Of a DNA stretch of 64,000 nucleotides, positions 3,618-39,661 are shown piece after piece (position 1 is the first letter of the stretch; every line of letters starts with the position of its first letter). The stretch is taken from the IMG/VR virus record IMGVR_UViG_3300048583_000100, positions 33,428 through 97,427 of that record; one strand, written 5' to 3'. The notes below the pieces were generated by a model, which was not told the DNA's origin, searched no databases, and saw only the letters and a list, made by a program, of their open reading frames with translations. The stretch comes from a virus. The position numbers and the translations under genes are program-made.

Positions 3618-3913
3618 CGCTCGTCATCCTTTAGAGAAGTTGCCATCCAAGAGAATCCATGGCCGAACGTAAGGCCAAAGATAGTTACCGAGCTTACCGT
3701 ATGCCAGTCATACTCGGTGCAGCAGTAATCGAAAAGCTTTTTCGTGCGGCCAACCGCAATGAACGCGAACCATTCATCAACGGATTCCCATGGGGCATTG
3801 TCGAAATGCTCATTCTCGTATGCGCAGTACTTGGTCTTATAGGTGAAGTACACCCCACGATTGTACGTGTAGAGCCGCTTAGGCCTGTCGAGTTTTACGG
3901 GGGTGAAATTCAT
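3614..3913 (-). CDS. Hypothetical protein
   Basis: Tightly packed minus-strand ORF. Confidence 0.55.
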   Translation of the reverse strand: MNFTPVKLDRPKRLYTYNRGVYFTYKTKYCAYENEHFDNAPWESVDEWFAFIAVGRTKKLFDYCCTEYDWHTVSSVTIFGLTFGHGFSWMATSLKDDER

Positions 3914-3914
3914 G

Positions 3915-4100
3915 TTAGTCCTGGTAGAGCTTCAGTGCTGAGAAGGTGCCGAATGGTGGCTTGAATTTGTAAAGCTTATCGAATGCGACATCTGCATGAG
4001 CTCGCGTTTTAAACTCCAGGGTCTTCATTGTCGCCGCCCGGCCACCACCATCTTCATTGGCGTAGCCACCAAAGGTAAGCACTATCAGAATCTGGTACAT
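3915..4100 (-). CDS. Hypothetical protein
   Basis: Small packed ORF with GGAG upstream. Confidence 0.55.
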   Translation of the reverse strand: MYQILIVLTFGGYANEDGGGRAATMKTLEFKTRAHADVAFDKLYKFKPPFGTFSALKLYQD

Positions 4101-4120
4101 GCGTGTTCTCCGAACTTGGG

Positions 4121-11935: not shown

Positions 11936-12949
11936 ATGTTTACCTTCAAACAGTTCATCAGCGAGTCTACACTCCACGTGTTTGACATCGACGACACCCT
12001 ATTCAAGACGTCTGCTAAGGTAGTCGTTAAGAAGGGCGGCAAAATCGTTCGCTCGCTGTCTTCGTCTGAATACAACAAGGACAAGCTGAAGGACGGAGAA
12101 GTCTACGACTTCGATGAGTTCCGTTCTGCTAGGAAGTTCAAGGACGAGTCAGAGCCAATGCAGGACATGCTCGATACCGTCAATCGTATCCACAACAAGA
12201 TCAAGATGAACCTTACTCCTGGTTCCAAGATCATCATGAACACCGCTCGTAGCGATTTCGATGAGCGTGATACGTTCCTTGGTAAGTTCAGAGATCACAA
12301 AGTGGACATCGACGATATCCACGTTCATCGTGCTGGCAATGTCAAGGGCGATCAACCTACTGCAGCCAAGAAGCTCGTATTCATCCGTGGCTACTTGAAG
12401 TCTGGCAAGTACAGCAACGTCATGATGTACGATGACAGCGAAAAGAATCTAGACCATTTCCTCGGTCTTCGCGAAGAGTTCCCAGACGTAAAATTCCACG
12501 CCTACCTTGTCAAGCACACCGGTAAGCTAGTGCAGTACAACTCAGCTGAGAAGGTTACCGAGGATGATGCCGAGCTGAAAGAAAAGTATCAGCGTTGGAA
12601 GAAGCTCGTCAACATGCCATCGCCTACACTCCAGAAGTTCATTGACTCGGACACTGGCAAAGATGCCGGCCTGTCTAGACAGGAAGCTTCGTCTTTGGGG
12701 ATTAAGAGTGGGCGCGATTCAGCCCGTGCTATCCTAAGAATGCGCGCAAAGCCATTCTCCGAGTGGACAGCAGATGACATCAAGTGGATGAATCGCCAAA
12801 TCTCATTCGTAAGTCGAATGACTGGCAACCAAGGCCCGATGTTCCAGATGAAAGATGGAAAGAAGGTTCCTACTCGTAAGCTTACGAGTCTCTGGATTTG
12901 GGGTAACGTGCCAGCGGGTCATTCACCTGGCACGTACCGCATCTTTTAA
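11936..12949 (+). CDS. HAD-family phosphatase (RNA-repair/PNKP-like HAD) fused to a DUF3140-like domain; capsid-targeting-like N-terminus
   Basis: MFTFKQFISE; FDIDDTL, NTAR, K, YDDSEKNL HAD motifs; C-terminal LVNM...SGRDSARAIL...SLWIWG. Confidence 0.8.
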   Translation: MFTFKQFISESTLHVFDIDDTLFKTSAKVVVKKGGKIVRSLSSSEYNKDKLKDGEVYDFDEFRSARKFKDESEPMQDMLDTVNRIHNKIKMNLTPGSKIIMNTARSDFDERDTFLGKFRDHKVDIDDIHVHRAGNVKGDQPTAAKKLVFIRGYLKSGKYSNVMMYDDSEKNLDHFLGLREEFPDVKFHAYLVKHTGKLVQYNSAEKVTEDDAELKEKYQRWKKLVNMPSPTLQKFIDSDTGKDAGLSRQEASSLGIKSGRDSARAILRMRAKPFSEWTADDIKWMNRQISFVSRMTGNQGPMFQMKDGKKVPTRKLTSLWIWGNVPAGHSPGTYRIF

Positions 12950-13494
12950 CGCTCTCGATCCCGCGCGTCATACGGCGGGACTGCGTTCAACTTCGACTTG
13001 ATACTTTCCCAGCTGACTGGGGTGTATCCATGTGCGTCGACACCAACGTCATATCGACGATTGGTACCGTCATTGGCGATCTTCCCGTGAACATGGCCGT
13101 GAAGCATCATCGAACCGTGAAAGGCCTTCTCCCAGCTCAGCAGCGGGTAGTGGCACATGTTGACCAGATGCCCATCAAAGGTTTCGCGATGAAGGTCTGG
13201 CACCAAGCGATGGAACTTCCGCTGCATGGCTTCCGAGTATCGAATGCGCTTGTCATGGTTGCCGAGAAGCAGAATGATCTTGCCCTGAAGTCGGCGCAGA
13301 ATCTGAATTGCTCGCTGCTCGGGGCAGAAGAAGATGTCGCCAAGCACCCACACTTCGTCTCCGTCTTGAACGACAGAATTCCAGTTGGCGATCAGCGTCT
13401 CATCCATCTCTTCGGCATTTGCGAAGGGACGAGAGCAGTACTTGATGATGTTTTCGTGCCCGAAATGCGGGTCACTTGTAAAGAACCTGTTCAT
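12946..13494 (-). CDS. Calcineurin-like metallophosphoesterase
   Basis: FTSDPHFGH, LGD, GNHD, CHYP, LHGHVH, DVGVD. Confidence 0.92.
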   Translation of the reverse strand: MNRFFTSDPHFGHENIIKYCSRPFANAEEMDETLIANWNSVVQDGDEVWVLGDIFFCPEQRAIQILRRLQGKIILLLGNHDKRIRYSEAMQRKFHRLVPDLHRETFDGHLVNMCHYPLLSWEKAFHGSMMLHGHVHGKIANDGTNRRYDVGVDAHGYTPVSWESIKSKLNAVPPYDARDRER

Positions 13495-13662
13495 CAGCTA
13501 TTCCTGAACCACGCTCGGACGTTGCTGAACAGATTGTACTTGACGATGTCGTGCCAGGCAACTACGCCAATGCAAACGACGATCGAGAACAGCCCATACC
13601 CAACGATGGCGTACATTGCAGCTTCTTCATTACTCATCTGATTTCTCCTAATCACTTAGGTC

Positions 13663-13692
13663 ATTATACACCACGGTGAATCAGACGTACAC
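13663..13692 (-). promoter_or_regulatory. Early-type promoter GTGTAC-N18-TATAAT
   Basis: Consensus match. Confidence 0.7.
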
Positions 13693-13694
13693 TG

Positions 13695-14189
13695 TCAACC
13701 TGCGAGTCGCTCCATGTCTCCGAGTTCAAGAAGCTGCTTGATGTAGAGACAGGCGTCCATCACTGCGCCCTCACCACCCTTGTTAGGTGTCACGAAATTT
13801 GCAGCCTTGATAGCTTCAATTCGCGCATTCGCGGGTGCGATACCAATTGCGCAAGTCTTGATGCATGGCGCATCGTAGTAGCCGTCGCCCATGAAAATGG
13901 TTTCGCGTGGATTCATCTGATGAATGAATTCAAGTCTGTCTTCTTCGGGTATAAACGTCAGCTCATATCCCATGTCTGCACAAATTCTGCGATGTGTAAT
14001 CTCGTAGCCTCTCTTATCGGCAGAGATAAACTGAATTCGAAGACGATTGCGAAGCATCTTCAATCCATCTGCATCATGCGGGCCAAACACCTTCGCTAGC
14101 TTGCCAGCAGCAGTGTAAATGAACTGCCCGTTAGTCATGACACCATCGACATCAAGGATGAAGTTTTTCAGATCTGCGGTTCTAAACAT
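13695..14189 (-). CDS. KdsC-like HAD sugar-phosphate phosphatase
   Basis: ILDVDGVMTNG, DADGLKML, FMGDGYYD, GGEGAV; start at MFRTAD. Confidence 0.85.
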   Translation of the reverse strand: MFRTADLKNFILDVDGVMTNGQFIYTAAGKLAKVFGPHDADGLKMLRNRLRIQFISADKRGYEITHRRICADMGYELTFIPEEDRLEFIHQMNPRETIFMGDGYYDAPCIKTCAIGIAPANARIEAIKAANFVTPNKGGEGAVMDACLYIKQLLELGDMERLAG

Positions 14190-15699
14190 TGGTGTTGACC
14201 TTGTGGTTGAGTCGTTCGAGAGCCAGACAGAATAGTAGCTTATCGAGTGGAGCATTGTGGAGAGGAGCCATGTTCAGGAAAATCAGCGTGACCATATCGT
14301 CAATGATCGGGCTTGGGAGCATGTGCTTGAATTTTTCGCGGAAGGCAATGAACTCTGGACGGCTTTCGAATCCAAACGAGCACGAGTCTCCGTCTTCAGA
14401 CACCCAGAATTTGTGTTCGCGAATGTAATCGTAGTTGACTATCATGCCACCTACCAGCTTCGCAGCATCATAATAGAGATCGCCGACTTTGATCTGCCCA
14501 CCGAAATCCTGTCTCCAGTCGATGAGCGTAAACTTCTCACCATCGTAGATGACGTTGTCGAACTGAAGATCACCATGGAAGAACACCGAACGAGTCTTCA
14601 GATCGGTGTTGAGCATTGCATTCCAATCGATGTGATGCTGAATGCCATTGTCGATGTCGACTTTTAGCACTCGCCCGTTGATGATCTTTGGATTGAATGT
14701 CGGGTACTTGTCTCGGAAAACCTGTAGACGACGCATCGTCTTGTCGTAGTAGAATTTGCGGCACAGCTCAGGAGTAAGCGTCTTGCTCTCATCCATCTGC
14801 CATACTTCGAATGCCATCCACTCCAAGAATTTCGTAAAGGTTTCGGCAGTTAGCGACTTGTAGAGCACATCACCTGGCACAAAGTGATACGAGTACCATG
14901 GCCCACGGTGTTCAATGATCTTTGGAAAGAGATGCTCTCTGCCTTCGATTCGAGCAAGACGATTCATCGTGTTAGCTGGATTGCGGAACCACTTGATGAC
15001 TCGATTGTTGACGATGTAGAGGAACTCGTCTGACTTGCTGTTGTCAAATGGTGAAGTCTCCTTAGAAAACTTCTCATAGCGCTCGTAGGTGCCAAGATCA
15101 ACCCAAGGAAGCTCGATTGAATGTACCTCATTAGCAGTCCAACCGCTGGCGAGCTCGATACCGTTCAGACCGTTCCAAAAATGCTTTGTGTCCTTGATGT
15201 AGAAAACACCAGAGACAGCAATTCCAGAATCGAAATGCTGCTTGTCAACCACCGTGTCGATGCGCGTACCGTCTAGAGCTACGTTGCAGTACGCAGGAGA
15301 ATCCATTGGATCAATGCGAGCAGTCGCTACATAGTTCTTATCTTCGGGAATGTCATTGAGCCCCTCGTAGTATCCATCACAAGCGATCAGATAGAAGGGC
15401 CCGTCGATATGCGCACCTGCGGCGAGCAATGATTGGGCTGGACCAGCACCCGGCCCATCAAAGTTTTCGACGTACGAGTAAAGGAAATTCCGTTCTGGGT
15501 GGGCGAGCGATAGATAGTCGCGAACTTGGTCGTGCTTGTACCCCACAGCAACCACGAACTTCGTGTCTTGGGGAAATTGCTCGATGATGTGCGAAATGAT
15601 TGCCTTGCCTCGAATGGGAAGCAGCGTCTTGTTGATGACGGTACTGTACTTTCCCATTCGCGATCCCGTTCCTGCTGTGAGGAGGACCACTGTTTTCAT
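14182..15699 (-). CDS. NTP-transferase (sugar/choline-phosphate nucleotidyltransferase) fused to an APH/choline-kinase-like phosphotransferase
   Basis: LLTAGTGSRMG...KTLLPI, WVDLGT; C-terminal FHGDLQFDNV, LIDWR, GDLYYDAAK. Confidence 0.85.
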   Translation of the reverse strand: MKTVVLLTAGTGSRMGKYSTVINKTLLPIRGKAIISHIIEQFPQDTKFVVAVGYKHDQVRDYLSLAHPERNFLYSYVENFDGPGAGPAQSLLAAGAHIDGPFYLIACDGYYEGLNDIPEDKNYVATARIDPMDSPAYCNVALDGTRIDTVVDKQHFDSGIAVSGVFYIKDTKHFWNGLNGIELASGWTANEVHSIELPWVDLGTYERYEKFSKETSPFDNSKSDEFLYIVNNRVIKWFRNPANTMNRLARIEGREHLFPKIIEHRGPWYSYHFVPGDVLYKSLTAETFTKFLEWMAFEVWQMDESKTLTPELCRKFYYDKTMRRLQVFRDKYPTFNPKIINGRVLKVDIDNGIQHHIDWNAMLNTDLKTRSVFFHGDLQFDNVIYDGEKFTLIDWRQDFGGQIKVGDLYYDAAKLVGGMIVNYDYIREHKFWVSEDGDSCSFGFESRPEFIAFREKFKHMLPSPIIDDMVTLIFLNMAPLHNAPLDKLLFCLALERLNHKVNTNV

Positions 15700-15766
15700 T
15701 TGATGACCTGATAAGATGCCCATGGTATGCAAGTATTTACCTCAAGCTCTACCAGACCCCGCGCAC

Positions 15767-28172: not shown

Positions 28173-28673
28173 TTAGTTTTCGCTTTCCTTGAAGGTCAGC
28201 TGTGGACAAATCTTTTCATGCTTGGCCTTGAACCATTCTGTGATGATGTTCGGTTCTTTCTTTGGCTTCTCGCCGTACCGATACATGTCCCATGCTTCTA
28301 TGCCATGTTCGGCAATGTACTTGTCCCTGAATCGCTGCTGTAGCTTTTCTTTAGCGGCAAAGTAACCCGCGCACACAGCAAGGATAGCCACCGCTGCGGT
28401 AACACTAGTTGGGATGATGACCCAAAGAGCAAGACCAGGCATACCCGCTTGTCCAATATGGAACATCGCATCAAACCCAAGTGTCCACCAAATCGCAGCG
28501 GCCAAGATAAGACCTGTGGTGTAAAAGGCTAGTGCCATAAACAGCGCTACAAATTTGAATAGTCCCCAGATAATCTGGCGAACGTAGGGGCAGAGATTCG
28601 TGCTGACATCATGTCGGTTAATGCCGAATTTAGCAAATCGATAGTGCCACGACTTGGTCGATAGCGTAATCAT
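28173..28673 (-). CDS. Predicted membrane protein
   Basis: Two to three hydrophobic segments. Confidence 0.65.
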   Translation of the reverse strand: MITLSTKSWHYRFAKFGINRHDVSTNLCPYVRQIIWGLFKFVALFMALAFYTTGLILAAAIWWTLGFDAMFHIGQAGMPGLALWVIIPTSVTAAVAILAVCAGYFAAKEKLQQRFRDKYIAEHGIEAWDMYRYGEKPKKEPNIITEWFKAKHEKICPQLTFKESEN

Positions 28674-29134
28674 CAGAGCTTCCTAAGTAGCCCAATGTTG
28701 TCAAGGTGAGATGGTGCTGTCCAGCCTTCCGGCTTGATGAGGTCTGGGAGACCGAGTGGGTTAGGACGCGAAGCCTTGATACCCGGTTCCTTCTGCATGT
28801 TGGCATCCAGTACGCGAGTCCAAGCCTTGTGGGCGTCTACCTTGAATGCATCGAGAGTACCGATGGCAACAACACAGAGGTCAATCATTGCATCGACGAT
28901 TTCGTCTGCGTATTCGATCTTGGCATTTTCCTGGAGAGCACCTTCATCAGCCTCGAGCGCTTCGAAAGCAGAGCGAGCTTCGTTCAGTTCTTCCTGAAGG
29001 AAGTCGAGACGGAATTTTAGGAAGGTGAGCAACTTGTCGCGCGGTAGGGTTTCGATTACTTCGCGCACCTTGAACTTGGTGTGCATGGTGTGGATGTCGT
29101 TGTCCCAATGGGACTTGTTCACTTCAAGATTCAT
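28673..29134 (-). CDS. MazG-like / all-alpha NTP pyrophosphohydrolase (candidate dCTPase)
   Basis: FLQEELNE, EIVDAMIDLCVVAIG, DANMQK, KPEGW. Confidence 0.85.
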   Translation of the reverse strand: MNLEVNKSHWDNDIHTMHTKFKVREVIETLPRDKLLTFLKFRLDFLQEELNEARSAFEALEADEGALQENAKIEYADEIVDAMIDLCVVAIGTLDAFKVDAHKAWTRVLDANMQKEPGIKASRPNPLGLPDLIKPEGWTAPSHLDNIGLLRKL

Positions 29135-29186
29135 TATGGTCTCTGATTGGTTGATGTTGCTACGGTAGTATTTACGCTTGGAAGAA

Positions 29187-29840
29187 TCACGAATGGTTCA
29201 GTTGTGAATCACGGGCTAGCTTGCCAACTGCTTCCATGATCAGGAAGACGTTGCGTTCGGGATGATCAGTACCGTCGAGCACCAGGTTCCAATTGTGAAG
29301 AGTCTTCCAATCGCGTTCGGTGGTCAGCATTGTGATCAGGCGTGTCACGTGGGTGTTCATGGCCTTGAGCAAGTCTTCTTCATTCAGAGGCCCAACTCGG
29401 TCGCAAATAACCATGACATCGTCCGTCAGCCTCTTACGCATCCTCTGAATGCGAAGCTCTTCAGGCGCATCGACGTAACAGTTCAGATGCAGCGCACCAA
29501 CTTCAAGAGCAGGTGCTACGTAGTGATTGATGCCGCTTGGTTCGACGATCAAGAATGCAACGCCTTTTGCGAGCTTACCATGGAACTCTTCTTTGGAAAC
29601 GCCGTAGCGATAACCATTGTAGGTCATGAGCTCAGCGAATCCATCGCGAGCTTCGATTGCGCGAGACTCTTCTTCTGTGATGAAGAAGTAATCGACACCT
29701 TCTACTTCGCCTTTACGGGCTGGGCGAGTCGTAGTTGAGATGAGGCAAGGTAGACGCTCAATATCTCTGATGTGGTTCAGTAGATAGCTCTTTCCCGAAT
29801 TGGACGGAGCTGTAAGTGTTACGAGGATTGGCTTAGCCAT
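29187..29840 (-). CDS. Guanylate-kinase-like NMP kinase
   Basis: APSNSGKS P-loop; STTTRPARKGEVEGVDYFF; YNGYRYG. Confidence 0.88.
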   Translation of the reverse strand: MAKPILVTLTAPSNSGKSYLLNHIRDIERLPCLISTTTRPARKGEVEGVDYFFITEEESRAIEARDGFAELMTYNGYRYGVSKEEFHGKLAKGVAFLIVEPSGINHYVAPALEVGALHLNCYVDAPEELRIQRMRKRLTDDVMVICDRVGPLNEEDLLKAMNTHVTRLITMLTTERDWKTLHNWNLVLDGTDHPERNVFLIMEAVGKLARDSQLNHS

Positions 29841-30610
29841 TTCTGCTTTAGCTCCATTTGAATGTGAGCAACTTCCTCGGGAGTGTTGAAGGAGAGAGTT
29901 GGGTAATCGGTCTGATACACCGTCACAGGCTGATCAGTGTTGTAGAGATGATGGAACACGTAGAGCATTGAGAGCTCTCCGCCTTGCGTGATGTAGCGAC
30001 CATTCTTCCAGAACGCATTGTGAAGATCATAAAGAGCTTCATGCAGTATGGACTTCTTGAATCGGAATACTGACTGATCATGCAGGCCGCTAGAATGATT
30101 CTCACCATACTTTGAAAAATCGGCAGACATACATTCCATATCTTCGTCAACCAAAAGAGTCACATACGGGTTCGGTTTAAGAACTGCCGGCACTACACCC
30201 GAATGCCAATACATGGGATGCGACAGCAGTTCATCGATGATTTCGGGATTAGAGAAGAACACATCACCCCAAGCAATCACGATGTCATCGCTGACTTCGA
30301 TTTTCTGAGCGTGGGCATCAACAAGTCCCCAAAGAACCGCATGACCATCGCCGAGCCCAGAAGAGATTGGCACGTTATGAACGTTGTTCAGAAGCTCTGG
30401 ATACTTCGCCTTGGTCTCTGCGAAGTATGCTGACCACTGGTCCTGAATGTCTTTGTTAGTGACGATGACAACCTTGTCGAATTTGGAACCAAGCTGTTGA
30501 AGAGTCGTAGTAAGGCAGGGCTCGTCCGTGATTGGTACGAGCGCCTTAGGAACGTTGACCTTCATTCGCGACCCTTTACCAGCCGCGATGATGAAGAGAT
30601 CACTTGCCAT
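29819..30610 (-). CDS. Sugar-1-phosphate nucleotidyltransferase (GlmU/MobA-like fold)
   Basis: IIAAGKGSRMK...PKALV, GLGDGHAV, IAWGDV, SFNTPEE. Confidence 0.85.
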   Translation of the reverse strand: MASDLFIIAAGKGSRMKVNVPKALVPITDEPCLTTTLQQLGSKFDKVVIVTNKDIQDQWSAYFAETKAKYPELLNNVHNVPISSGLGDGHAVLWGLVDAHAQKIEVSDDIVIAWGDVFFSNPEIIDELLSHPMYWHSGVVPAVLKPNPYVTLLVDEDMECMSADFSKYGENHSSGLHDQSVFRFKKSILHEALYDLHNAFWKNGRYITQGGELSMLYVFHHLYNTDQPVTVYQTDYPTLSFNTPEEVAHIQMELKQKWLSQSS

Positions 30611-32507
30611 TGTTGGATGCCTTATGACGTACTGCTACTTGAGTGAAGAATGCCGTGTGGGCTGGGTTCTTTACGTGCAGACACTTGACACCTGGGAGAC
30701 CGCGAACGACGGCATCGTTGCCGACATCGAGCTCATCGCCGACATACGTGATGTTAGCTGGATTCAGGCTCTTCTTGATGTCCACGATAGCGTCTACCTT
30801 CGAAAGATTATGTCGCGCAATCTCGATAGTGGTTCGGCCAGAAGCACGAACAACAATCTCCGGGTCCTTGATGATCGTCTTGACAAGCTCCAATACAATT
30901 CCGCGATACTCCTGATCGATAGGTTTGATCGTGATCATTGCATTACCACGATTCTCAATCTTCGACAGCGGGATGTGGTGCTTACGAAGTGTTTCGATGA
31001 TGCGCTCTGCCTGAGTAGCATCGAAGATGGCAGAAGTGTTTACGCACTCGATGAACTCCTGCTTCTTGTCGTCATCGCTGTTGTGGTCGCGCTCGGTCAT
31101 TGAGGTGTAGCGGTACTTGTTGACACCGCCATCCGCGTAAATCGTGACATAGGCCGGGAGTTCCGCGAAAGTGCTTTCGTCTGTATCGACGAAATTCTTC
31201 AGATTGATGGCCTTGATAGAATTGCCAGTGCAGATTGCGACCTTCGAAACTCGATTCAGCGCGGCAAGGTTTGCCGTGTTGATTGAGGATGCCTTCGGGA
31301 AGATGTTACCGCGGCCAACGAGAGTGTCATCGTAATCGAAGACGAAGCAATCGCTCTCAATGAACTCCCTGAAATACGACTGACCAACGGCAAGCGCGAG
31401 CTTGTACGGGTCATGCGTCTTGGCTACATGGTCGGTTGGAACCGGACCAGACATATCGTAGTAGTCGAACGAGAGTACACGACTATGCGCGTCATCATCG
31501 AGTACCTTCATGATGCCTTCAGCAGCGCTATCAAGCACAAGGCGAATACGATCCTTCGGGAAGTAACGATCAGTCAGAATACGGATGATGTCGGATGCGC
31601 CCTGGCCCGGAGAGTCTTTGTCTGGCTGACGATTCATGACCATGACAATCTGAGCTTGCGAGCTGTCAATTGCTTCCTTGAAGCCACGGGATTCGTAAGT
31701 AGGAATCAACGAGGACCACTGTGTACCGCTAGAAAGAATGATGAGGTCAGCTTCCTTGATGGCAGTGAAAGCTTCACTACAGAGATAAGGATACGCGTCG
31801 TTGCCTTCTGCATCCGTGAAGAAGACATCTACGAATGGGTCAGTCATGCTGCCCCAAGATACGATGTCACCTTCATCTGTGATGCGCTTGCCGCTCTGAG
31901 TAATTGCACCGAGGAAGAGCGAGGTGTCATCGTTCAGAAGAACGTTGTCCTTGATTCCCATGAGCGATGCCATAATCTTTGCGGATGCACGAAGAGAGTT
32001 GCCGTTCGCTGATGCGAAACCGGCATACACAATGTTGGCAATCGAGAAGTCGTTGTAGTCGATCTTCGAAGCGATTGGAGAACGGAAGTATGCGTCGATT
32101 GCTTCACGAACGAACTGAGTAGCAGAGATGCGCTCCAGTGGTTCAGTGCCAAAATGCGGAACACCCTTGAACTGCTGCACCAACTCAGACTCGAGCTTAG
32201 CTACTTCAGCGTAGCAGAAGGCCTTGACAGAATCTGAGGGCTGCGTGAAGCGGACGTTCAGGAATTTCAGCCATGGCGACTTCGGATTCTCAAGCTCAAG
32301 ACGAGTAGTCTGATTCTTGCGAACATCTGAAGGACCGAGAATCTTGCCGTTCATTACCTGTCGGACTGCACCCGTGGACAGTCCATTATCGTACGCATTG
32401 ACGATAACTTTCGTATCGATACCGTCAATCTGCTTGTCTAGCAGATCGTAAAGACCCCGCTGAAGTGCGATCGAACCAGTACCACCAGCCAAAATTACGA
32501 TTTTCAT
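30600..32507 (-). CDS. CofD/YvcK (UPF0052)-like transferase fused to a HAD-IIB phosphomannomutase-like domain
   Basis: ILAGGTGS, YDNGLSTG, GPSDVR, EADLIILSSG, HDPYKLA; C-terminal FDYDDTL, CTGN, IENRG, SGRTTIEI, YVGDE...GND. Confidence 0.82.
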   Translation of the reverse strand: MKIVILAGGTGSIALQRGLYDLLDKQIDGIDTKVIVNAYDNGLSTGAVRQVMNGKILGPSDVRKNQTTRLELENPKSPWLKFLNVRFTQPSDSVKAFCYAEVAKLESELVQQFKGVPHFGTEPLERISATQFVREAIDAYFRSPIASKIDYNDFSIANIVYAGFASANGNSLRASAKIMASLMGIKDNVLLNDDTSLFLGAITQSGKRITDEGDIVSWGSMTDPFVDVFFTDAEGNDAYPYLCSEAFTAIKEADLIILSSGTQWSSLIPTYESRGFKEAIDSSQAQIVMVMNRQPDKDSPGQGASDIIRILTDRYFPKDRIRLVLDSAAEGIMKVLDDDAHSRVLSFDYYDMSGPVPTDHVAKTHDPYKLALAVGQSYFREFIESDCFVFDYDDTLVGRGNIFPKASSINTANLAALNRVSKVAICTGNSIKAINLKNFVDTDESTFAELPAYVTIYADGGVNKYRYTSMTERDHNSDDDKKQEFIECVNTSAIFDATQAERIIETLRKHHIPLSKIENRGNAMITIKPIDQEYRGIVLELVKTIIKDPEIVVRASGRTTIEIARHNLSKVDAIVDIKKSLNPANITYVGDELDVGNDAVVRGLPGVKCLHVKNPAHTAFFTQVAVRHKASNNGK

Positions 32508-32568
32508 GTAGTTCTCCATTCACTCCCGTATTCCGGGCACGCATTATTTACGGGAAAGTCAATCTGAA

Positions 32569-33186
32569 TTAGTTCGAATACGAAATCTCGGCGTGAGAAT
32601 AACTGAAGTTGACCTTGAACTGGCTGGCACCGTTTGGAGCAGCGAAAGCTTCAGGACTGTGAACATCAACAGTGGTACTGTTTACGAGCTCGTAGACCGA
32701 ATAAAGCAGAGGATTGGTTTCCTTCAAATCCTCCAGGTCGCCGCGATTAAGCTTAGGAGTTTTCAGACGAATTCTGATGTCTGGCCCAAAGCCAGCATTG
32801 TACTGCAGCTTTGGAAAATCGATGGATTGCACTTGCGCAGAAATATAGCTTATGCTGCGGAGAACGCCATTGTCACCATCCAGCTGTTCGACGACAATGT
32901 CAAACTTCTGTTCGCCTGGTCGCTGCATAAGGTTCTGCAGAGATTTGCATGCTACATTCGTAACATCATCTTCGAAAATTGCACTTACGTTAAGTACCTG
33001 GCCGAGGTTTCTACGGTAAGTAGTGGTGCTGTCGAAGCTTACAAGCTGTACGCTTAGCCCCTGGCTTTCCGGTACTTCAAGCTTGATGTCTGAATCCACA
33101 AAACGTACGCGAAAACGATTGATGAGATTCGGCATCTTGATACCAGCGCCAATTGCGATGTCTGATGTTGGTGAGAGTGTGGCCAT
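32569..33186 (-). CDS. Possible tail-tube-like (gp19-fold) protein
   Basis: MPNLINRFRVRF, FEDD, IVVEQLDG pattern reminiscent of jumbo-phage tube paralogues. Confidence 0.4.
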   Translation of the reverse strand: MATLSPTSDIAIGAGIKMPNLINRFRVRFVDSDIKLEVPESQGLSVQLVSFDSTTTYRRNLGQVLNVSAIFEDDVTNVACKSLQNLMQRPGEQKFDIVVEQLDGDNGVLRSISYISAQVQSIDFPKLQYNAGFGPDIRIRLKTPKLNRGDLEDLKETNPLLYSVYELVNSTTVDVHSPEAFAAPNGASQFKVNFSYSHAEISYSN

Positions 33187-33188
33187 GA

Positions 33189-34388
33189 TTATCCTTTTAG
33201 GAGATTGACGAAGCTAGTGCAGTAAAGCTTGGCGTCAAAGTTGATTGCTGCTAGCTGCGCTTCGACGATATGCCTGCGCAGTTCGATGTCAGTCTTGAGC
33301 AGCTGAATCTTTTCAGACAGCTCTTGGCGAGTGGAGACGTACAGGAAATCTGCGAGCTGTGGGTCAGCTCCGTATACACGACGAAGCTGATCGAGGTCGA
33401 TGTCGATGAAGGTAACGACGTTAGACCAGATAGACTCGTACGCGCGCTGTGCCATGTCATTGATGTCTTCGTACCACGGGTCACCGATGACACAGTGAGC
33501 CATAGCTTCGTTCATCTTAGGCAGCATCTCGTCGTAACGAACTGCGCCAGTGAAAGTCGGCTCGCGAGTACCAGGCGGAAGACCTGGAGTGCCCTTGAGC
33601 TTGTCGAAGTCTTCGCTGTCGATTTTACCGAACATCTCAACGGAGATATCCGAAGGATGACCGAAGTAGAACTTCACCATCTTTTTGATGCGCTTACCAC
33701 CTCGCATCGTGCCACCATACGAAAGGTCGACCTTAGGAGTCGGGTTGAATGGAAGCTGTTCGTTGAGGCAGGGGAACTTCTCGAATGGGAAGTGGATGAT
33801 GTTCTTCGGCCCGACTTCATTCTTACCGAAGTCAGCAAGCACCTTCTCAACATCATGGGGCTGACTGAGGTACGTGATGTCGGTACGCGTGATGTTGAGC
33901 TGCTTCTCAGTCCACTTGCTGCCCCATTCTTTCTTCTTGACAGAAGGCCACACCTGTTTGAGGGTGAGTTCAGGATCGCAGAAGATGTAGTAAACAGGAC
34001 CATCGAATGCATTGATGATCTGGTAGTTGAGCAATTGTTCAGGGTCTTCGGCACCACCAAAGAAGTTGACATTGCCGTTTAGAACGACGAGAGCATCGTA
34101 CGGGAAGATGGTAGGACCATCAGTCTGAAGCGGCAGATGCGTACCCGGCAGACCACTAAAAGTTGGCCCATGCCAACTCGTGTATCCCTTCTCAAGGATG
34201 TCTGTAAGATTGTGCCACTTGTAATCCTCGACAAGGTTGTCCTTTTTGAGAATCTTCGTGTAGATGTGAACGTCAGCTCCGCCTTCCTTGAGCATCTTGA
34301 TGATCGACCGCGCCTCACCATTACCACCCGACGTATCGTTGGCATTGAAGGAGATGCGGGAGCCTAGCTTGATGACGGCTACTTTCAT
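33189..34388 (-). CDS. bgt: DNA beta-glucosyltransferase homologue (T4 BGT-like, GT-B fold)
   Basis: YDALVVLNGNVNFFGG, DLSYGGTMRGGKR.KKM, PTFTG and VIGDPWY are colinear with T4 BGT motifs (VNSSINFFGG, YGGSFRSGQR, PVFTG, IIGDKNY). Confidence 0.88.
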   Translation of the reverse strand: MKVAVIKLGSRISFNANDTSGGNGEARSIIKMLKEGGADVHIYTKILKKDNLVEDYKWHNLTDILEKGYTSWHGPTFSGLPGTHLPLQTDGPTIFPYDALVVLNGNVNFFGGAEDPEQLLNYQIINAFDGPVYYIFCDPELTLKQVWPSVKKKEWGSKWTEKQLNITRTDITYLSQPHDVEKVLADFGKNEVGPKNIIHFPFEKFPCLNEQLPFNPTPKVDLSYGGTMRGGKRIKKMVKFYFGHPSDISVEMFGKIDSEDFDKLKGTPGLPPGTREPTFTGAVRYDEMLPKMNEAMAHCVIGDPWYEDINDMAQRAYESIWSNVVTFIDIDLDQLRRVYGADPQLADFLYVSTRQELSEKIQLLKTDIELRRHIVEAQLAAINFDAKLYCTSFVNLLKG

Positions 34389-34563
34389 GGTGTGATGTCG
34401 TCCTGCTCTTTTGTCTTGATGTGGTTGTCAGAAGCGAATTCGCGGATGTCTGAATAGTGGTCCATCGAAACACCGAGCTTCGACAGAGCATCCTTGAACG
34501 TGTAAGACGATTGTATCACACGTCGAATCAGTTCGTCATCTTTGATGATGCGCTGAAGGTCAT

Positions 34564-35067
34564 TCATGGGTTGAACAACAGATTGATTGCGTGCATCGCT
34601 TCATCGACAGTCGTGAAGCGGTACCAGATAGCTTCATTCAGCATCGAGTGCTCGTGAATGTTGCCGCCTTCTGATACATCGAAACCCGTCTTCTGATCGA
34701 AGGAGCCTTCCATGATCGCGATGACTGGGATTTTGTGGGTGTAGGCCCAAGCAACTTCCATAACCGTTCCGATACTTACTCGCTTTGCGCCAGTGAGGTT
34801 GACGAGAACGGCATCAGAGGTCATGACGTCGTGGTGATCACGAAGCATGATTGCCTTTGAGGTGGAGAACTGCAGTGTCGGGTAGGAGTCCTTGATCTCA
34901 GGATGGTCCTTGAGATATTCCTTGCCGCGAAGTGGGCTGAAGAACTCGATGTTGCCGAATCGTTCGGGATCGCGAGAGGCATCAAGCTTGACTTGATCGC
35001 GCCAATCTTCACTCTCGTTCCAGCTTGCGCCAGTGATTGGACCAGCCAGATAAACTTTCTTAGTCAT
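34564..35067 (-). CDS. Nucleoside 2-deoxyribosyltransferase / nucleotide N-glycosidase family protein
   Basis: VYLAGPI, FFSP, D...V..SDAVLV, SIGTVMEVAWA. Confidence 0.85.
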   Translation of the reverse strand: MTKKVYLAGPITGASWNESEDWRDQVKLDASRDPERFGNIEFFSPLRGKEYLKDHPEIKDSYPTLQFSTSKAIMLRDHHDVMTSDAVLVNLTGAKRVSIGTVMEVAWAYTHKIPVIAIMEGSFDQKTGFDVSEGGNIHEHSMLNEAIWYRFTTVDEAMHAINLLFNP

Positions 35068-35344
35068 GAGCTTGTTCCTCGTCTTCGTCAACGATTTTGG
35101 GGTTTTCCAGAATCACAAATCGTGCAGCCTTAGGCTCCACATTCTTCATGAACACGCGATCGAACCAGCGCGAGAACGTTCCCGGTACGGCAAGCACAAT
35201 GCTATACCGCTTACTGAATTCTTCTGGGTCAGAGATGATTCCATCCTCATAGGCCTTATGCTGGATAAGCTCCATGATCTGATTTGCCTGCTTCATCATG
35301 CCATCGGCATCGAGCGAGTAATAGTTGTAGCTGACTCCGGACAT
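35060..35344 (-). CDS. Hypothetical protein
   Basis: Packed ORF. Confidence 0.55.
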   Translation of the reverse strand: MSGVSYNYYSLDADGMMKQANQIMELIQHKAYEDGIISDPEEFSKRYSIVLAVPGTFSRWFDRVFMKNVEPKAARFVILENPKIVDEDEEQAHD

Positions 35345-35922
35345 TAGTAGATCGCCTCTTTCAGAATGTCGTCTCTGTGGCGGAAGCCACCAGTCGCTCT
35401 GTCGGTAACGCAGATGATTCGCTTGTCTTTGATGTTGGAGCGAGTAAATGCTTCGATGAAGCGAGCCTGTTCTTCTGCGCGCTTGCTAGCTGGACCGAGG
35501 GATTCACCATCATCAACGAAGTGGCTAGCCGCTTCGAAGTCTTCAGTCAGAAGAATCAGACGGAGATTGCAGTTACGATGAAGGCCTGCAGCAATTTCCT
35601 GCTCATAGACGTAGTCGCCGCTATAGTCACGGTACATTGGCGAATAGACAACCTCGCCAAGATGCCAACGATCGAAGATCACTCGAGCTCCAGAGTTGGC
35701 GAGCAACATCGAGTTGCGAAAGCCCTCTGACTGATAGTGATATGCAGATTGTCTACCATCGGGCACGCCATGAACTGGAGCGGACTTTTCGTAGATGTTC
35801 AGCTTCTGGGGCTTACTGAAGTGAATCACTTCGAAGTAGCCGAGCTGATTCCTGATGCCTTCGATCAGGGTAGACTTGCCGAGTCGATCGAGACCTTCGA
35901 TCGCGAAAACGTTGGGTGTCAT
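35344..35922 (-). CDS. Thymidylate-kinase-like dNMP kinase
   Basis: IEGLDRLGKST, IFDRWHLGE.VY. Confidence 0.85.
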   Translation of the reverse strand: MTPNVFAIEGLDRLGKSTLIEGIRNQLGYFEVIHFSKPQKLNIYEKSAPVHGVPDGRQSAYHYQSEGFRNSMLLANSGARVIFDRWHLGEVVYSPMYRDYSGDYVYEQEIAAGLHRNCNLRLILLTEDFEAASHFVDDGESLGPASKRAEEQARFIEAFTRSNIKDKRIICVTDRATGGFRHRDDILKEAIY

Positions 35923-35978
35923 GGTGTGCCTTCTGTTTCTTTCATTGTAAACTGGTTGCGCTATCATGTAAAGCCCAA

Positions 35979-37718
35979 TCAGAGGAATTTGGTGAAGCGG
36001 GTATTGAATTCATTTTTCCACACGTTGAGCGGGCTGCTCCAAAGCCTTGCTAGATTCTGATCAAGACAGTATGTGACAGCATGATCCGAAGAAGATCTAA
36101 CCGATCTACCTGCGCCTTGCACGGCCTTCATGATAGTGATCGTGTTGTACAGATCAGGATGGTGATCGAGGATGAACTTGATTCGCTTGTCTCCGAGAGA
36201 TGGGAAGGGAGCCTTCACCATAACCTGGAACCGCGACATGTCACCCGGCAAGTCAACACCTTCGAAGATAGATGGTGAGATGAGCAGAGCTGGTCCACCC
36301 TTGTAAGCCTTGAACGCAGTCAAAGTATGCTCAAGCTTCTCGCCTTGGCGTTGTTCGAACAGCTTGTAGCTCTTAGCCCATGATGCCGAAGTAAGCTCAG
36401 CAACGATCTCGTTCTGTAGCTTGAACGACGGCGTGAGCACGATACCGCGTTCACCCTGATCGATGTGGTGTTTGACGATCTTGGCGACGTTCTTACGAAG
36501 CTGCTTGACAACTTCGGGCTGTTGCAATGACTGATAGCCAAGCGACATCGTATCGAAGAATACGATCTCTTTGTTCTCTTTAGGGAACGTTGGATCGAGC
36601 TTGATGAACTTCGTCTTCTCTTTATCGAGTGTCATCGTCTTGGTGATGAACGCTTCCGAGACAGTAGCCGACATGAAGAGGTTGTGCGATGCGGCCTGCA
36701 GAGCTTCGATCATCGTGCCTACGAATACTGGCTTGACGCTGACAGCCTGCTCTTCTTCCTTGTACTCGAACACGTGGGGATAGTCGTACTTGTAGAGGTC
36801 GTCAATCTTGCAGAGCAGCCCTTCGAATTTCTTCGTGAAGCGGGAAAGCTTCGAGTACTGACTCATGTGACCCGAGCGTAGAGCACGGTCAGAAAGAATG
36901 GTACCCTGCTCTTTGGCATACGAGTAGACCGCAACCAGAGCATTGAGGTACGTCTTGTAGTTCTTCTCGTTGATCTTACCGACCTTCGCGCAGTCAGCTG
37001 CAATCGCGCTGATGGTCTTTGCGACTTCAACGTCTGTAAGATGAACGGTTTCTGCGATCTCTTTCTGAATTGCGAGCATGCGCTTCTGTGAGAAGAAGAT
37101 TGCATTGTGCTCGGAGAAAAGATCGTTGATGAGATGGGCTTCGTCCCAGATCAGAAGGTCACGATCTTCGAATTTGCCGGTGTACATGCGATCAATGAAG
37201 AAGTACGAATAGTTTGTCGTGAGATGACGAGTCAGATTCTTCTTGCGCTTTATGTCCAGGAACTCGCACTTGTTGCAGTGCTTAGCCATGATGTCTTCGA
37301 ACTCAGAGCCCGACTGAACCATCGTCCACCAGGCGCACGCATCTGCAGCAACCTCTTCAGATGGAGTTGAGAGAGCAGAACAGCCGTAGTTGCCCGCACC
37401 CTTCAGCATGATGTACTTACCACGGTCACCGAGACCATGGAAGGTGGTGTCGTATTGCTTGGCGAGTACGTTGGTTGCCGTCAGCGAGATGCTGGACTTG
37501 ATAGCTCCATCATGACCGCCTCTAAGAGCAGTCAGCGCTTCTGCTGTGGCAGCTCCGATAATCGACTTACCGGTACCAGTCGAAGCGTTGAGGATGACGT
37601 TGACCATCTTCTCATCAACGAAAGCCAGAAGGATTTGGTTGACCGCATCCATTTGACCTTCACGAGGCTTAAACCCGAGGCGCTTAAAGGCGTCGGCAAT
37701 TTGCTGTTCATACTTCAT
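35979..37718 (-). CDS. DinG/XPD-family SF2 helicase
   Basis: Q motif PREGQ, ASTGTGKS, Cys residues in the Fe-S region, DEAH, SAT, EGVDLPG, QGAGRSVR. Confidence 0.9.
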   Translation of the reverse strand: MKYEQQIADAFKRLGFKPREGQMDAVNQILLAFVDEKMVNVILNASTGTGKSIIGAATAEALTALRGGHDGAIKSSISLTATNVLAKQYDTTFHGLGDRGKYIMLKGAGNYGCSALSTPSEEVAADACAWWTMVQSGSEFEDIMAKHCNKCEFLDIKRKKNLTRHLTTNYSYFFIDRMYTGKFEDRDLLIWDEAHLINDLFSEHNAIFFSQKRMLAIQKEIAETVHLTDVEVAKTISAIAADCAKVGKINEKNYKTYLNALVAVYSYAKEQGTILSDRALRSGHMSQYSKLSRFTKKFEGLLCKIDDLYKYDYPHVFEYKEEEQAVSVKPVFVGTMIEALQAASHNLFMSATVSEAFITKTMTLDKEKTKFIKLDPTFPKENKEIVFFDTMSLGYQSLQQPEVVKQLRKNVAKIVKHHIDQGERGIVLTPSFKLQNEIVAELTSASWAKSYKLFEQRQGEKLEHTLTAFKAYKGGPALLISPSIFEGVDLPGDMSRFQVMVKAPFPSLGDKRIKFILDHHPDLYNTITIMKAVQGAGRSVRSSSDHAVTYCLDQNLARLWSSPLNVWKNEFNTRFTKFL

Positions 37719-37958
37719 TTACTTCTCTTCTTCGAATTTCGTCAGAACGTAAATGTCATACGTGTCTGATTTGGGCGAGCTAGAAACTTCTTTGTCGCGG
37801 GGTGCCTCAGCTGCGCGAACACGATCTCGCAGAACAATCGCTTGCTCCTTGGAGCCGGTGTGCACCTCACTGCCCCATGAATAAACACAGAGCGAATCTG
37901 GGCTAAGAGGCCAAGGTGCGGCGATAACGAAGCTGAAAGTCTTGATGACCCTTTTCAT
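37719..37958 (-). CDS. Hypothetical protein
   Basis: Packed ORF. Confidence 0.5.
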   Translation of the reverse strand: MKRVIKTFSFVIAAPWPLSPDSLCVYSWGSEVHTGSKEQAIVLRDRVRAAEAPRDKEVSSSPKSDTYDIYVLTKFEEEK

Positions 37959-38335
37959 TAGAGGTTTACCTCATCAACAGGAACCATTGGCCCTGGCTCT
38001 CGATCGGCATAGTACTCGAGGTCGTTGACGGCGAATACTTCGGTCGTGTAAGCGGCATCCAGATCACGCGTTTCAACTGCCGTGATAGACGTGGCCATGC
38101 TGCAAGGGAAGCGCTTGTGGCTCGTATCCTGCTTGACGATCGTGCAGTAGGTTGCTTCACCATTTGCCGCACGATCGAGCTTGGAAAGCAAGGCCTTCAC
38201 GTTTCGCTCAGACAGATAAACGATCTGCGCCCGACCTGCGGTCTTACCAGCCATCAGGATAGGAGAGATGATGTTGGTTGGAATCTTTTCCAGGAGCTGA
38301 TTGAGTTCTGCTCGGGTTACGTAGACGTTGTTCAC
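37958..38335 (-). CDS. Hypothetical protein
   Basis: Packed ORF. Confidence 0.55.
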   Translation of the reverse strand: MNNVYVTRAELNQLLEKIPTNIISPILMAGKTAGRAQIVYLSERNVKALLSKLDRAANGEATYCTIVKQDTSHKRFPCSMATSITAVETRDLDAAYTTEVFAVNDLEYYADREPGPMVPVDEVNL

Positions 38336-38393
38336 GACAATTACTCTCCATATGTAGATGCTATCTTATCACGTAACTGAACAGATTGTAACT

Positions 38394-38903
38394 TCAATCA
38401 GGCGCGCAGTGACAAGCGCCACAGGTTTCGTAGCTGGGGGTGCAGCCGTAGAAATCCAGACCTTCGACCAACTTTGTATCACCACAGACCCTGCATTCGC
38501 TGATCTGCTTTTTTCTGAAGCGAGGCATGCTCATATGCCGATCACCATCTCCACCTCGCAGATATTCTAACTGCTCAAGCTCGGCCAGTTCAGATTCCCA
38601 TATGACTCTGACTTCCAAGTCGACATTGTGGGCACCTGGTAGATCGGGATTAGTGCCAGGCTTCACCGTCTCCAGCATATAGTACAGCTGGTATTCACCC
38701 GCGTGTTCCTTGCGCTCTTGAATTTTGTCGGTGATCATCTTCTGCGCCTGGGCTTCAGTCAAAGAAGCTCCCGGCACGTGCGTTGGATATGCCGTCATCA
38801 GCTCGATCACTGCACGATCGAAGGTTCTATCCCCAAGAAAGTTACCATCGTTGGGTACACCATTTGCCAATTGGTACGAGAAGTACTTCTTCATGTCTGT
38901 CAC
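38394..38903 (-). CDS. Hypothetical protein with C-terminal CxxC motifs
   Basis: ECRVC...TCGAC. Confidence 0.55.
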   Translation of the reverse strand: MTDMKKYFSYQLANGVPNDGNFLGDRTFDRAVIELMTAYPTHVPGASLTEAQAQKMITDKIQERKEHAGEYQLYYMLETVKPGTNPDLPGAHNVDLEVRVIWESELAELEQLEYLRGGDGDRHMSMPRFRKKQISECRVCGDTKLVEGLDFYGCTPSYETCGACHCAPD

Positions 38904-39661
38904 GACGTTGCCTTCTTACCGTAGGTAGTTGGATCGACGAGGTTGTAATGGCGCTCGTACACATGGAGTGAGCCAACGTTCCAGTAGAGGTTGCCTGTTG
39001 GCACATTTAGCTCGATTGCAAGCTTGTCAAGTACGTGCTTCTGCCATGCGCGATCGTTCTTGTAGCCGAAGACTGCGTCGTTAGAGCGCATCTGAACCAC
39101 TGCGTGGAGGGCGCCATCACGAATGAGATACTGGACCGCGTTGGTGCACATGAAGTCAGAACGACCATCTACATTGTACTCCATCCACATTGAAGGGCGA
39201 GTGTAGATCATTATTGCTCGACGAGACTCTGGGTTTTTCTTGAGCTCGTTAAGGGTGCGCTCGTATTGACAATCGGTCGGTGAGTAGGGCTGATGATCAG
39301 AAAGGCCTAGATTAGAAAGGCCATTCTCGAAGGAGTAGATGCACCAACCGTAATTCGAGTTGATGAAGCCTTTCGAATCGGCTACGGCCGACCAAATCGC
39401 CGGTGGACCGCCTGGGATGTCGTTGACGTTGCGCGACATCGAGTTGTACCATTCTTCTTCGCGATGAACGTAATCCCAGTTCACCTTACCGAAGATTGAT
39501 TCTTCGTCTGCGATGAAGGACGCACCAATCAGTTCGATGGTGGTGTTGCCAGTGAGAGCAGTCATTGACGCTTCACGGTTGATCGACGTGAACTTCTTGT
39601 TGGCTAGAAGAACTTTGAAGGCTTCACGGATGTCTTTGGTTCTTAGAGGTACTGGGAGCAC
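38900..39661 (-). CDS. dCMP hydroxymethyltransferase (T4 gp42-like)
   Basis: TIELIGASFIADE, INSNYGW, SRRAIMIYTRPSM, SDFMCTNAVQYLIR, MRSND..FGYKND, WNVGSLHVY. Confidence 0.95.
   Translation of the reverse strand: MLPVPLRTKDIREAFKVLLANKKFTSINREASMTALTGNTTIELIGASFIADEESIFGKVNWDYVHREEEWYNSMSRNVNDIPGGPPAIWSAVADSKGFINSNYGWCIYSFENGLSNLGLSDHQPYSPTDCQYERTLNELKKNPESRRAIMIYTRPSMWMEYNVDGRSDFMCTNAVQYLIRDGALHAVVQMRSNDAVFGYKNDRAWQKHVLDKLAIELNVPTGNLYWNVGSLHVYERHYNLVDPTTYGKKATS

Follow-up and report, generated by a model that had tools for sequence, protein, structure and literature searches.

Why would a phage equipped to glycosylate its DNA along the lines of phage T4 also encode enzymes that activate a sugar? 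This question is raised by a block of genes on the minus strand of a 64,000-nucleotide stretch of viral DNA (positions 33,428 to 97,427 of the IMG/VR record IMGVR_UViG_3300048583_000100; hereafter, the window), in which a dCMP hydroxymethylase and a homologue of the T4 DNA beta-glucosyltransferase (BGT) are encoded together with a sugar-phosphate nucleotidyltransferase and a fusion of a YvcK/CofD-like domain to a phosphomannomutase (PMM)-type domain. The window is part of a 97.4 kb viral contig with a CheckV completeness estimate of 27%, and close relatives with terminal repeats reach 343-368 kb, so that the contig is a fragment of a jumbo phage genome; elsewhere, the window encodes topoisomerase II subunits and long tail fibre proteins. 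A preliminary description of the block, made from the sequence alone, named eight genes between 28673 and 39661 and proposed that some of them either make an unusual nucleoside diphosphate (NDP)-sugar for the BGT or add a phospho-substituent to the glycosylated base, 5-hydroxymethylcytosine (hmC). All eight are present on the minus strand, as open reading frames (ORFs) and by family matches, but the list was incomplete: the block also holds a DinG/XPD-like helicase, an ORF with a tail-tube fold and several small ORFs without an assigned family. Considering the linkage to bgt, the PMM-type HAD domain and the GlmU-like nucleotidyltransferase, the answer that most likely applies is that the phage makes an NDP-sugar for its BGT.

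A conserved core of three genes

The genes on which the argument turns are the following.

38900-39661, minus strand: dCMP hydroxymethylase of the T4 gp42 type, 253 aa, thymidylate synthase family (PF00303, 61.9 bits)
33189-34388, minus strand: DNA beta-glucosyltransferase homologue, family GT63, 399 aa (PF09198, 69.7 bits against a cut-off of 27, E 3e-19; phrog_7922, E 1e-52)
30600-32519, minus strand: fusion gene, 639-aa protein (CofD family PF01933, 80.7 bits, plus a HAD-IIB domain)
31368-32519, minus strand: YvcK/CofD-like N-terminal domain of the fusion, residues 1-384 (PF01933; TIGR01826 YvcK, 68.5 bits)
30603-31367, minus strand: PMM-type HAD-IIB C-terminal domain of the fusion, residues 385-639 (profile and fold matches)
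29819-30610, minus strand: sugar-phosphate nucleotidyltransferase resembling the GlmU N-terminal domain, 263 aa (NTP_transf_3/PF12804, 46.7 bits, E 5e-12)

The conserved core of the system consists of the BGT, the YvcK-PMM fusion and the nucleotidyltransferase. The sample comprises 37 IMG/VR loci, the cultured Ralstonia phage RsoM2USA and one locus from a metagenome-assembled genome (MAG); all ORFs were clustered, and the fusion is held by 28 dereplicated groups, to which the counts below refer. A nucleotidyltransferase is encoded within 5 kb of the fusion gene in 26 of the 28 groups (27 when RsoM2USA is counted, across record ends), and a BGT is present in 25, in 24 of them within 5 kb of the fusion gene and almost always directly upstream on the same strand. 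The hydroxymethylase gene lies within the fetched flanks in 17 groups and elsewhere in four further records. The order of BGT, fusion gene and nucleotidyltransferase gene on one strand persists where the fusion proteins share as little as 27-30% identity. Linkage of the accessory genes to bgt in relatives, on which the preliminary description had hinged its proposal, is thus borne out for the fusion and the nucleotidyltransferase, and the conservation of gene order and strand indicates that the arrangement of the block is not due to chance.

The fusion protein family is large, comprising 279 clusters when grouped at 50% identity (E up to 1e-30), almost all of which are two-domain proteins, and the cassette is widespread in phage contigs, many of them of 230-370 kb, and in T4-like phages, almost always coupled to a BGT. 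The carriers include jumbo phages, T4-like phages and RsoM2USA, which has the complete triad. One natural triple fusion, P0100, unites the YvcK, PMM and nucleotidyltransferase parts in a single protein. In T4-like relatives, the cassette follows genes for a UvsX-like protein and a gene-41-type helicase (L022) and precedes the gene for a family-B DNA polymerase (L030), the interval in which beta-gt lies in T4. In the paper on RsoM2USA, a beta-glucosyltransferase and a putative thymidylate synthase are the only entries for the region, and no DNA analysis is reported; in the sequence record of this phage, all these genes are labelled hypothetical. Megablast of the block against the phage collection gives no match, and only two phage records in that collection carry the fusion protein.

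The slot between the BGT and fusion genes is variable. It is occupied by a class I S-adenosylmethionine-dependent methyltransferase in three groups (L019:8982-10004, L020:9192-10004 and L028:8781-9587), by other ORFs elsewhere and by a tail-tube-like ORF in the window. In one locus, a Methyltransf_24 protein is encoded just upstream of the BGT (L038:8218-8832), and in one lineage the nucleotidyltransferase gene is followed by that of an intein-containing GT1-type glycosyltransferase (L036:12605-14962). The methyltransferase and second glycosyltransferase neighbours suggest methylated or two-sugar variants.

The enzymes of the pathway

The sequence of the hydroxymethylase supports hmC as the base product. 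The best PDB match of this protein is the T4 dCMP hydroxymethylase (1b49, E 8e-71 over 210 residues), with ThyA at about 1e-11 and MilA at 3e-9. The catalytic cysteine is retained in the motif SDFMCTN, identical to that of T4, and the cytosine-specific replacement of ThyA Asn177 by Asp is found in YKNDRAW, which aligns with FRNDYAW of T4; the position is marked by the D179N mutant entry 6l18. Some phage thymidylate synthase homologues, of the RB69 gp48 type, make 5-hydroxy-dCMP, and their signature is an Asn at ThyA Asp169 (D169N; 2026 paper, PMC13326640). Because Asp is kept at this position both in the window enzyme (RSND) and in the relatives aligned with it (RS.D in 12 of 12), hmC is the product that the alignment supports, and 5-hydroxycytosine is ruled out for the window by the gp42 type of the enzyme together with the retained Asp169.

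The thymidylate synthase homologues associated with the cassette fall into three sequence types, namely gp42-like, RsoM2USA ORF10-like and a third type found in L026, L033 and L038; when representatives (L001, L043, L026, L033 and L038) are compared with the window enzyme (38900-39661), Asp occupies both ThyA positions, 169 and 177, in all of them. The hydroxymethylase gene of L042 (G005:C1:120465-121124) contains one in-frame TAG, which could be a recoded stop codon in that phage. A canonical ThyA is encoded separately at about 48-962 of the window.

The BGT homologue matches T4 BGT (1bgt) with E 3.8e-34 and retains the equivalents of T4 D100, R191, R195, Y261, R269 and E272, which include the catalytic base, D100, and UDP contacts of the T4 enzyme. 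T4 residues 1-53 have no aligned counterpart in the first 91 residues of the homologue, and the equivalent of Glu22 cannot be placed. A search of the 97 kb contig found no other glycosyltransferase of the GT1 or GT2 family.

The fusion protein was modelled confidently with AlphaFold2 on 23 homologues (pLDDT 88.6, pTM 0.89); this 23-sequence alignment (A1) was complemented by a wider, 27-sequence profile of the HAD domain (A2). Residues 1-384 of the model match structures of the YvcK/UPF0052 family with Z 31 and a root-mean-square deviation (rmsd) of 2.3-3.2 over about 300 residues, for instance 2hzb (Z 31.6, rmsd 2.3, 296 residues), and match CofD/FbiA with Z 20-22. The sequence profile finds only YvcK chains in the PDB and no CofD chain at E up to 1, and the TIGR01826 score of 68.5 bits is below the curated cut-off of 196. 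The domain had been described as a CofD-like transferase; the Pfam assignment to the CofD family stands, but the protein is closer to YvcK (Z 31 versus 21). YvcK/GlmR of Firmicutes binds UDP-N-acetylglucosamine (UDP-GlcNAc), and the function of YvcK in these bacteria is debated, with regulation of GlmS and uridyltransferase activity as the opposing views. The cassette would give this family a defined biochemical context. Many polar residues of the domain are invariant (GGxG, NxxDxG..G..R, PxDxRK, GTxWSxLxPTY and NxxxDxD), which argues for a catalytic rather than a merely binding role. In the alignment, ADNGGSTG of 2ppv and DDGGSSG of 2hzb are the counterparts of the segment YDNGLSTG, and the invariant D44 is followed by Asn. 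In Listeria GlmR, a YvcK protein reported to convert GlcNAc-1-phosphate and UTP to UDP-GlcNAc, D40, D41 and N198 are proposed to be catalytic (PMC10128056); N198 cannot be mapped onto the window domain.

The C-terminal part of the fusion, previously called PMM-like, can be assigned to the PMM-type HAD proteins. In a PDB search with profile A2, Plasmodium falciparum PMM is found at 2.3e-17 and human PMM2 at 1e-13; the top 15 matches are all PMM or alpha-phosphoglucomutase (2e-17 to 3e-6), and other HAD-IIB phosphatases appear only above 0.01. A single-sequence search of the PDB with this domain gave no match, so that the profile is required. By fold, the best match is an alpha-phosphoglucomutase of the PMM type (4bnd, Z 16.8), with PMMs at about 15. 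The HAD motifs FDYDDTL and GDE...GND, including the DxDxT residues (D395, D397, T399), as well as K574, are invariant in A1 and invariant or more than 90% conserved in A2. R524, R539 and T564 align with R123, R141 and S179 of PMM2, which presumably form the distal phosphate site; the position of PMM2 R134 is deleted. This correspondence is suggestive only.

The nucleotidyltransferase is GlmU-like, in agreement with its earlier assignment as a sugar-phosphate nucleotidyltransferase: profile A4 matches the GlmU uridyltransferase domain at 3.8e-16 over 200 residues, and R15 and K22 of the loop AAGKGSRM...PKAL are invariant. In the alignment, Ile takes the position equivalent to GlmU Gln76, presumably a contact of uracil.

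A proposed pathway and its alternatives

Three further genes of the block bear on the proposed mechanism.

35344-35967, minus strand: thymidylate-kinase-like P-loop kinase (phrog_761, E 6e-12; Pfam AAA_28 and Thymidylate_kin below their cut-offs)
28673-29134, minus strand: MazG-like all-alpha NTP pyrophosphohydrolase (PRA-PH/PF01503, 22.2 bits; phrog_671, E 2.6e-17)
29187-29840, minus strand: guanylate-kinase-like kinase, 217 aa (PF00625, 53.2 bits against a cut-off of 25.2, E 4e-14)

The system is probably a T4-type hmC pathway joined to a self-contained module for production of the sugar donor. The MazG-like enzyme would remove dCTP, the gp42-type enzyme, judging by homology and the key residues it keeps, would make hydroxymethyl-dCMP (hm-dCMP), and the thymidylate-kinase-like enzyme may take the latter on towards hm-dCTP. 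After replication, the BGT homologue, which keeps the catalytic residues, would use an NDP-hexose to add a hexose to the hydroxymethyl group. The donor would be made on the spot, with the PMM-type domain converting hexose-6-phosphate to hexose-1-phosphate and the GlmU-like nucleotidyltransferase activating the latter with an NTP; glucose, mannose or an amino sugar are candidates for the hexose. The YvcK-like domain might act on the same sugar phosphate in a third step, of the phosphoryl or nucleotidyl type, or bind the product, and it is even thinkable that it makes or handles a hexose bisphosphate. Coupling of these steps is supported by the triple fusion and by the two-domain form being the rule in the family.

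Both nucleotide-pool enzymes fit ordinary T4-type roles, the kinase that of a dNMP kinase and the MazG-like protein that of a dCTPase. The former, likely an hm-dCMP/dNMP kinase, is encoded in 18 of the 28 groups, usually directly upstream of the BGT, and Tmk-like kinases are also found within the modification clusters of RB69, DLP3 and RL38J1. The latter is likely a dCTPase/dUTPase analogue of T4 gp56; its nearest PDB entry is DR2231, a MazG-like NTP pyrophosphohydrolase (7.6e-5), and its gene is found in nine groups. The guanylate-kinase-like protein matches guanylate kinases in the PDB down to 2e-12 and keeps the P-loop and the GMP motif S..TTR..R..E.G..Y..F (S-TTTR-PAR-GE-EG-DY-FF, aligned with bacterial guanylate kinases), although it scores below the NCBIfam equivalog cut-off (73 versus 160 bits) and its C-terminal third is unaligned. 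The gene adjoins the cassette in each of the 13 groups that have it and was not found in the complete relatives G001 and G004 or in RsoM2USA. Thus, the cassette does not need a guanylate kinase, which is ruled out as a required member and is a clade-specific accessory.

Several observations weigh against the donor-module reading. The YvcK-like domain, although strongly conserved, is left unexplained because a mutase and a nucleotidyltransferase suffice for an NDP-hexose. If the sugar is glucose, it is not evident why such a module is required, as UDP-glucose is already available in most bacteria. The HAD domain might act as a phosphatase instead of a mutase; the structural Z alone does not separate the two (16.8 versus 13-14). 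Finally, phage G004 (99% complete, 352 kb) has the pair of fusion and nucleotidyltransferase but neither a BGT nor a thymidylate synthase homologue. The respective locus (L029) also encodes a C-5 cytosine DNA methylase (E 7e-76; 5768-6979), located 3 kb upstream of the pair, as well as a Lar-like restriction alleviation protein (3593-4117). As for a TET route to hmC, Tet_JBP gave no match in G004, nor in the control genomes, so that this search is uninformative.

The pair is also found, at 52% identity, in a bacterial polysaccharide locus (L040, from the MAG) next to MatE, three sulfotransferases, a GT1-like transferase, Caps_synth and a pyruvyl transferase; neither the BGT nor the hydroxymethylase is present at this locus. 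No further fused copies were detected in 401 genomes of the phylum of this carrier, so the cassette appears to be rare in the cells sampled. The occurrence of the pair in L040 and G004, without a BGT or hydroxymethylase, implies that it works with different transferases and acceptors, and its presence outside DNA contexts is more in keeping with a module that makes a donor than with a transferase directed at DNA. Of the two functions that the preliminary description had offered for the accessory genes, the supply of an NDP-sugar to the BGT is accordingly supported and the attachment of a phospho-substituent to DNA is weakened.

The same two loci could be taken to mean that the cassette does not act on DNA at all and makes a donor for another glycan, of the host envelope or a virion protein, its location beside bgt reflecting the shared ancestry of a nucleotide-metabolism island. 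This is very improbable because the BGT adjoins the pair on the same strand in 24 groups, across jumbo and T4-like backbones that otherwise have no common local gene order, and because the contig encodes no other transferase of the GT1 or GT2 family that was found. Somewhat less improbable, but still unlikely, is a phosphotransfer of the CofD type, in which the YvcK/CofD-like domain would move hexose-1-phosphate from an NDP-hexose to hmC or glycosyl-hmC with release of a nucleoside monophosphate, yielding a phosphodiester-linked sugar outside the DNA backbone, with the guanylate kinase recycling GMP. The best-established transferases of the family, CofD/FbiA, obtain their donor in GDP-activated form from a partner nucleotidyltransferase; they bind GDP (entries 3c3e and 6uw3), and the pairing, even fusion, of a transferase-like protein with a nucleotidyltransferase mirrors CofC/CofD. 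The retained GMP motif of the guanylate-kinase-like protein and its position next to the cassette whenever present are compatible with such a mechanism, and the DNA of Bacillus phage SP-15 provides a precedent for a phosphodiester-linked sugar on a phage base. The domain, however, is closer to YvcK than to CofD/FbiA both in structure and in the profile search, the guanylate kinase is missing from 15 of the 28 groups, and the pair occurs with non-DNA glycosyltransferases and without a BGT. If true, this mechanism would produce a cytosine counterpart of the phosphoglucuronate of SP-15 and would be the first catalytic role of a YvcK-type protein on nucleic acid.

A more substantial possibility, albeit one that we consider rather doubtful, lies within the donor-module reading itself: the cassette might only top up or secure UDP-glucose, for example, against hosts that lower galU, and the DNA would then carry the plain beta-glucosyl-hmC known from T4. 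UDP contacts and the catalytic base of T4 are retained in the BGT homologue, an alpha-phosphoglucomutase is the structure to which the HAD domain is closest, and SP-15 is annotated with a phosphomannomutase that converts glucose 6-phosphate to glucose 1-phosphate along with a UDP-glucose pyrophosphorylase. Conversely, the cassette-linked BGTs are only 29-35% identical to those of T-even phages, a methyltransferase or second glycosyltransferase adjoins the cassette in some relatives, and the alignment places Ile at the presumed uracil-contacting position of the nucleotidyltransferase. A non-glucose or phospho-linked product is possible. An arabinose pathway is ruled out, given that the contig has no isomerase of the SIS family and no BLAST similarity to AfhE-type proteins.

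Neighbouring genes and known systems

The remaining features of the block and the putative signals at its borders are as follows.

34564-35091, minus strand: Nuc_deoxyrib_tr protein, of the nucleoside 2-deoxyribosyltransferase/nucleotide N-glycosidase family (PF05014, 31.0 bits against a cut-off of 28.8)
35979-37718, minus strand: DinG/XPD-like helicase (Helicase_C_2, E 7e-20; ResIII)
32569-33186, minus strand: ORF between the BGT and fusion genes, 205 aa (no Pfam match; phrog_4542 tail tube, E 1.5e-5)
28173-28673, minus strand: membrane-protein gene, the last co-directional gene, to which the block extends
39816-39788, minus strand: promoter-like site TTTACA-17-TACAAT upstream of the block and the hydroxymethylase gene (consensus match only)
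28150-28131, minus strand: terminator-like hairpin after the membrane-protein gene (consensus match only)

The N-glycosidase-family protein, encoded between the kinase and the BGT, may act on the nucleotide pool as a dNMP N-glycosidase; apart from the window, its gene is present only in L005 (2 of the 28 groups). Together with the guanylate kinase (13 groups) and the MazG-like protein (9 groups), it falls outside the conserved core, so these three members of the originally named cluster are accessory. The helicase is kept at the same position in 12 groups. A structure search with the 205-aa ORF retrieves tail-tube families (TM-score about 0.59), and only one other homologue cluster exists; it is accordingly ruled out as a tailoring enzyme and probably has no enzymatic part in the pathway.

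The genes are tightly packed, with overlaps of 11 nt between the fusion and nucleotidyltransferase genes and of 22 nt between the latter and the guanylate-kinase-like gene. The promoter- and terminator-like sites are consensus matches, and their number is not above the shuffled expectation. The same hexamer pair, TTTACA-17-TACAAT, recurs at 35972-35944 (minus strand), at the start of the thymidylate-kinase-like gene, and a hairpin with a T run is located at 39752-39729, between the first promoter-like site and the start of the hydroxymethylase gene.

A second sugar-activation module is encoded at 12946-15732 on the minus strand, 14 kb from the hmC block.

14182-15732, minus strand: 516-aa protein with NTP_transf_3 and APH/choline-kinase-like phosphotransferase domains
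13695-14255, minus strand: 186-aa HAD hydrolase, after the 516-aa gene
12946-13494, minus strand: metallophosphoesterase

The architecture of this module matches AfhE/AfhF of the arabinosyl-5-hydroxycytosine phages and AmgK-MurU, without BLAST-level similarity to those phages; the module gene is absent from the complete relatives G411, G412 and G001 and from RsoM2USA.

Glycosylated hmC shields phage DNA from restriction enzymes and CRISPR nucleases and is itself a target of type IV restriction. The identity of the attached sugar influences which of them a phage evades and which it sets off. To our knowledge, none of the three enzymes of the cassette has been studied so far. If the sugar is not glucose, or is a phospho-sugar, environmental jumbo phages would harbour a large class of cytosine hypermodification that has so far gone unseen.

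Compared with known systems, the window resembles T4 in having a gp42-type hydroxymethylase, a BGT homologue and a separate canonical ThyA on the contig. Unlike the window, T4 (gp42, the gp1 dNMP kinase, the gp56 dCTPase and GT63) relies on host UDP-glucose and lacks a mutase, a nucleotidyltransferase and a YvcK-like gene; furthermore, the window has a kinase that resembles thymidylate kinase instead of gp1 and a pyrophosphatase of the MazG/DR2231 kind. The phages RB69, DLP3 and HY126, which have arabinosyl-5-hydroxycytosine in their DNA, similarly combine a phage sugar-nucleotide pathway with a DNA glycosyltransferase, a thymidylate synthase homologue and a thymidylate-kinase-like kinase (PMC13326640). 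In these phages, too, a HAD enzyme and a nucleotidyltransferase shift the phosphate from the distal carbon to C1 and activate the sugar, the work of the mutase being done by the AfhE kinase/pyrophosphorylase and the AfhF HAD phosphatase via a 1,5-bisphosphate, with UDP-arabinose as the product (PMC13326640). They differ from the window in the Asn, instead of Asp, at ThyA position 169, in a GT4-like rather than GT63 transferase and in the use of a kinase and a phosphatase where the window has a PMM-type mutase fused to YvcK; no arabinose-5-phosphate isomerase (SIS) was found on the window contig. The base-modification cluster of SP-15 is annotated with the phosphomannomutase mentioned above and with UTP-glucose-1-phosphate uridylyltransferase, and no phage base other than its dihydroxypentyluracil is known to carry a sugar through a phosphodiester link (PMC5977210). 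This system modifies a uracil derivative and includes teichoic-acid-type transferases and a UDP-glucose dehydrogenase but neither a BGT nor a YvcK/CofD-like protein.

With YvcK/GlmR (UPF0052) and CofD/FbiA (2-phospho-L-lactate transferase, EC 2.7.8.28), the window protein shares the fold, the glycine-rich loop and the D-x-G-x-S-T-G motif, and CofD likewise has a nucleotidyltransferase partner of the MobA/GlmU fold; unlike these proteins, that of the window is encoded by a phage, has a PMM-type domain as its fusion partner and is linked to a DNA glycosyltransferase. We know of no description of a PMM-type fusion for either family, and none of the papers found reports one. Neither F420-pathway nor yvcJ/whiA-type genes were seen among the neighbours examined. 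No link of YvcK/CofD to phage DNA modification was found in the literature searched, and the terms CofD and YvcK are absent from PMC13326640 and from a 2023 preprint on phage DNA glycosyltransferases. Donors that phages themselves make for the glycosylation of DNA are already represented by UDP-arabinose, UDP-galactofuranose and the SP-15 genes. Altogether, the kind of system is known and this particular set of enzymes is undescribed: it is a real, conserved donor cassette attached to the T4-type pathway of hmC glycosylation.

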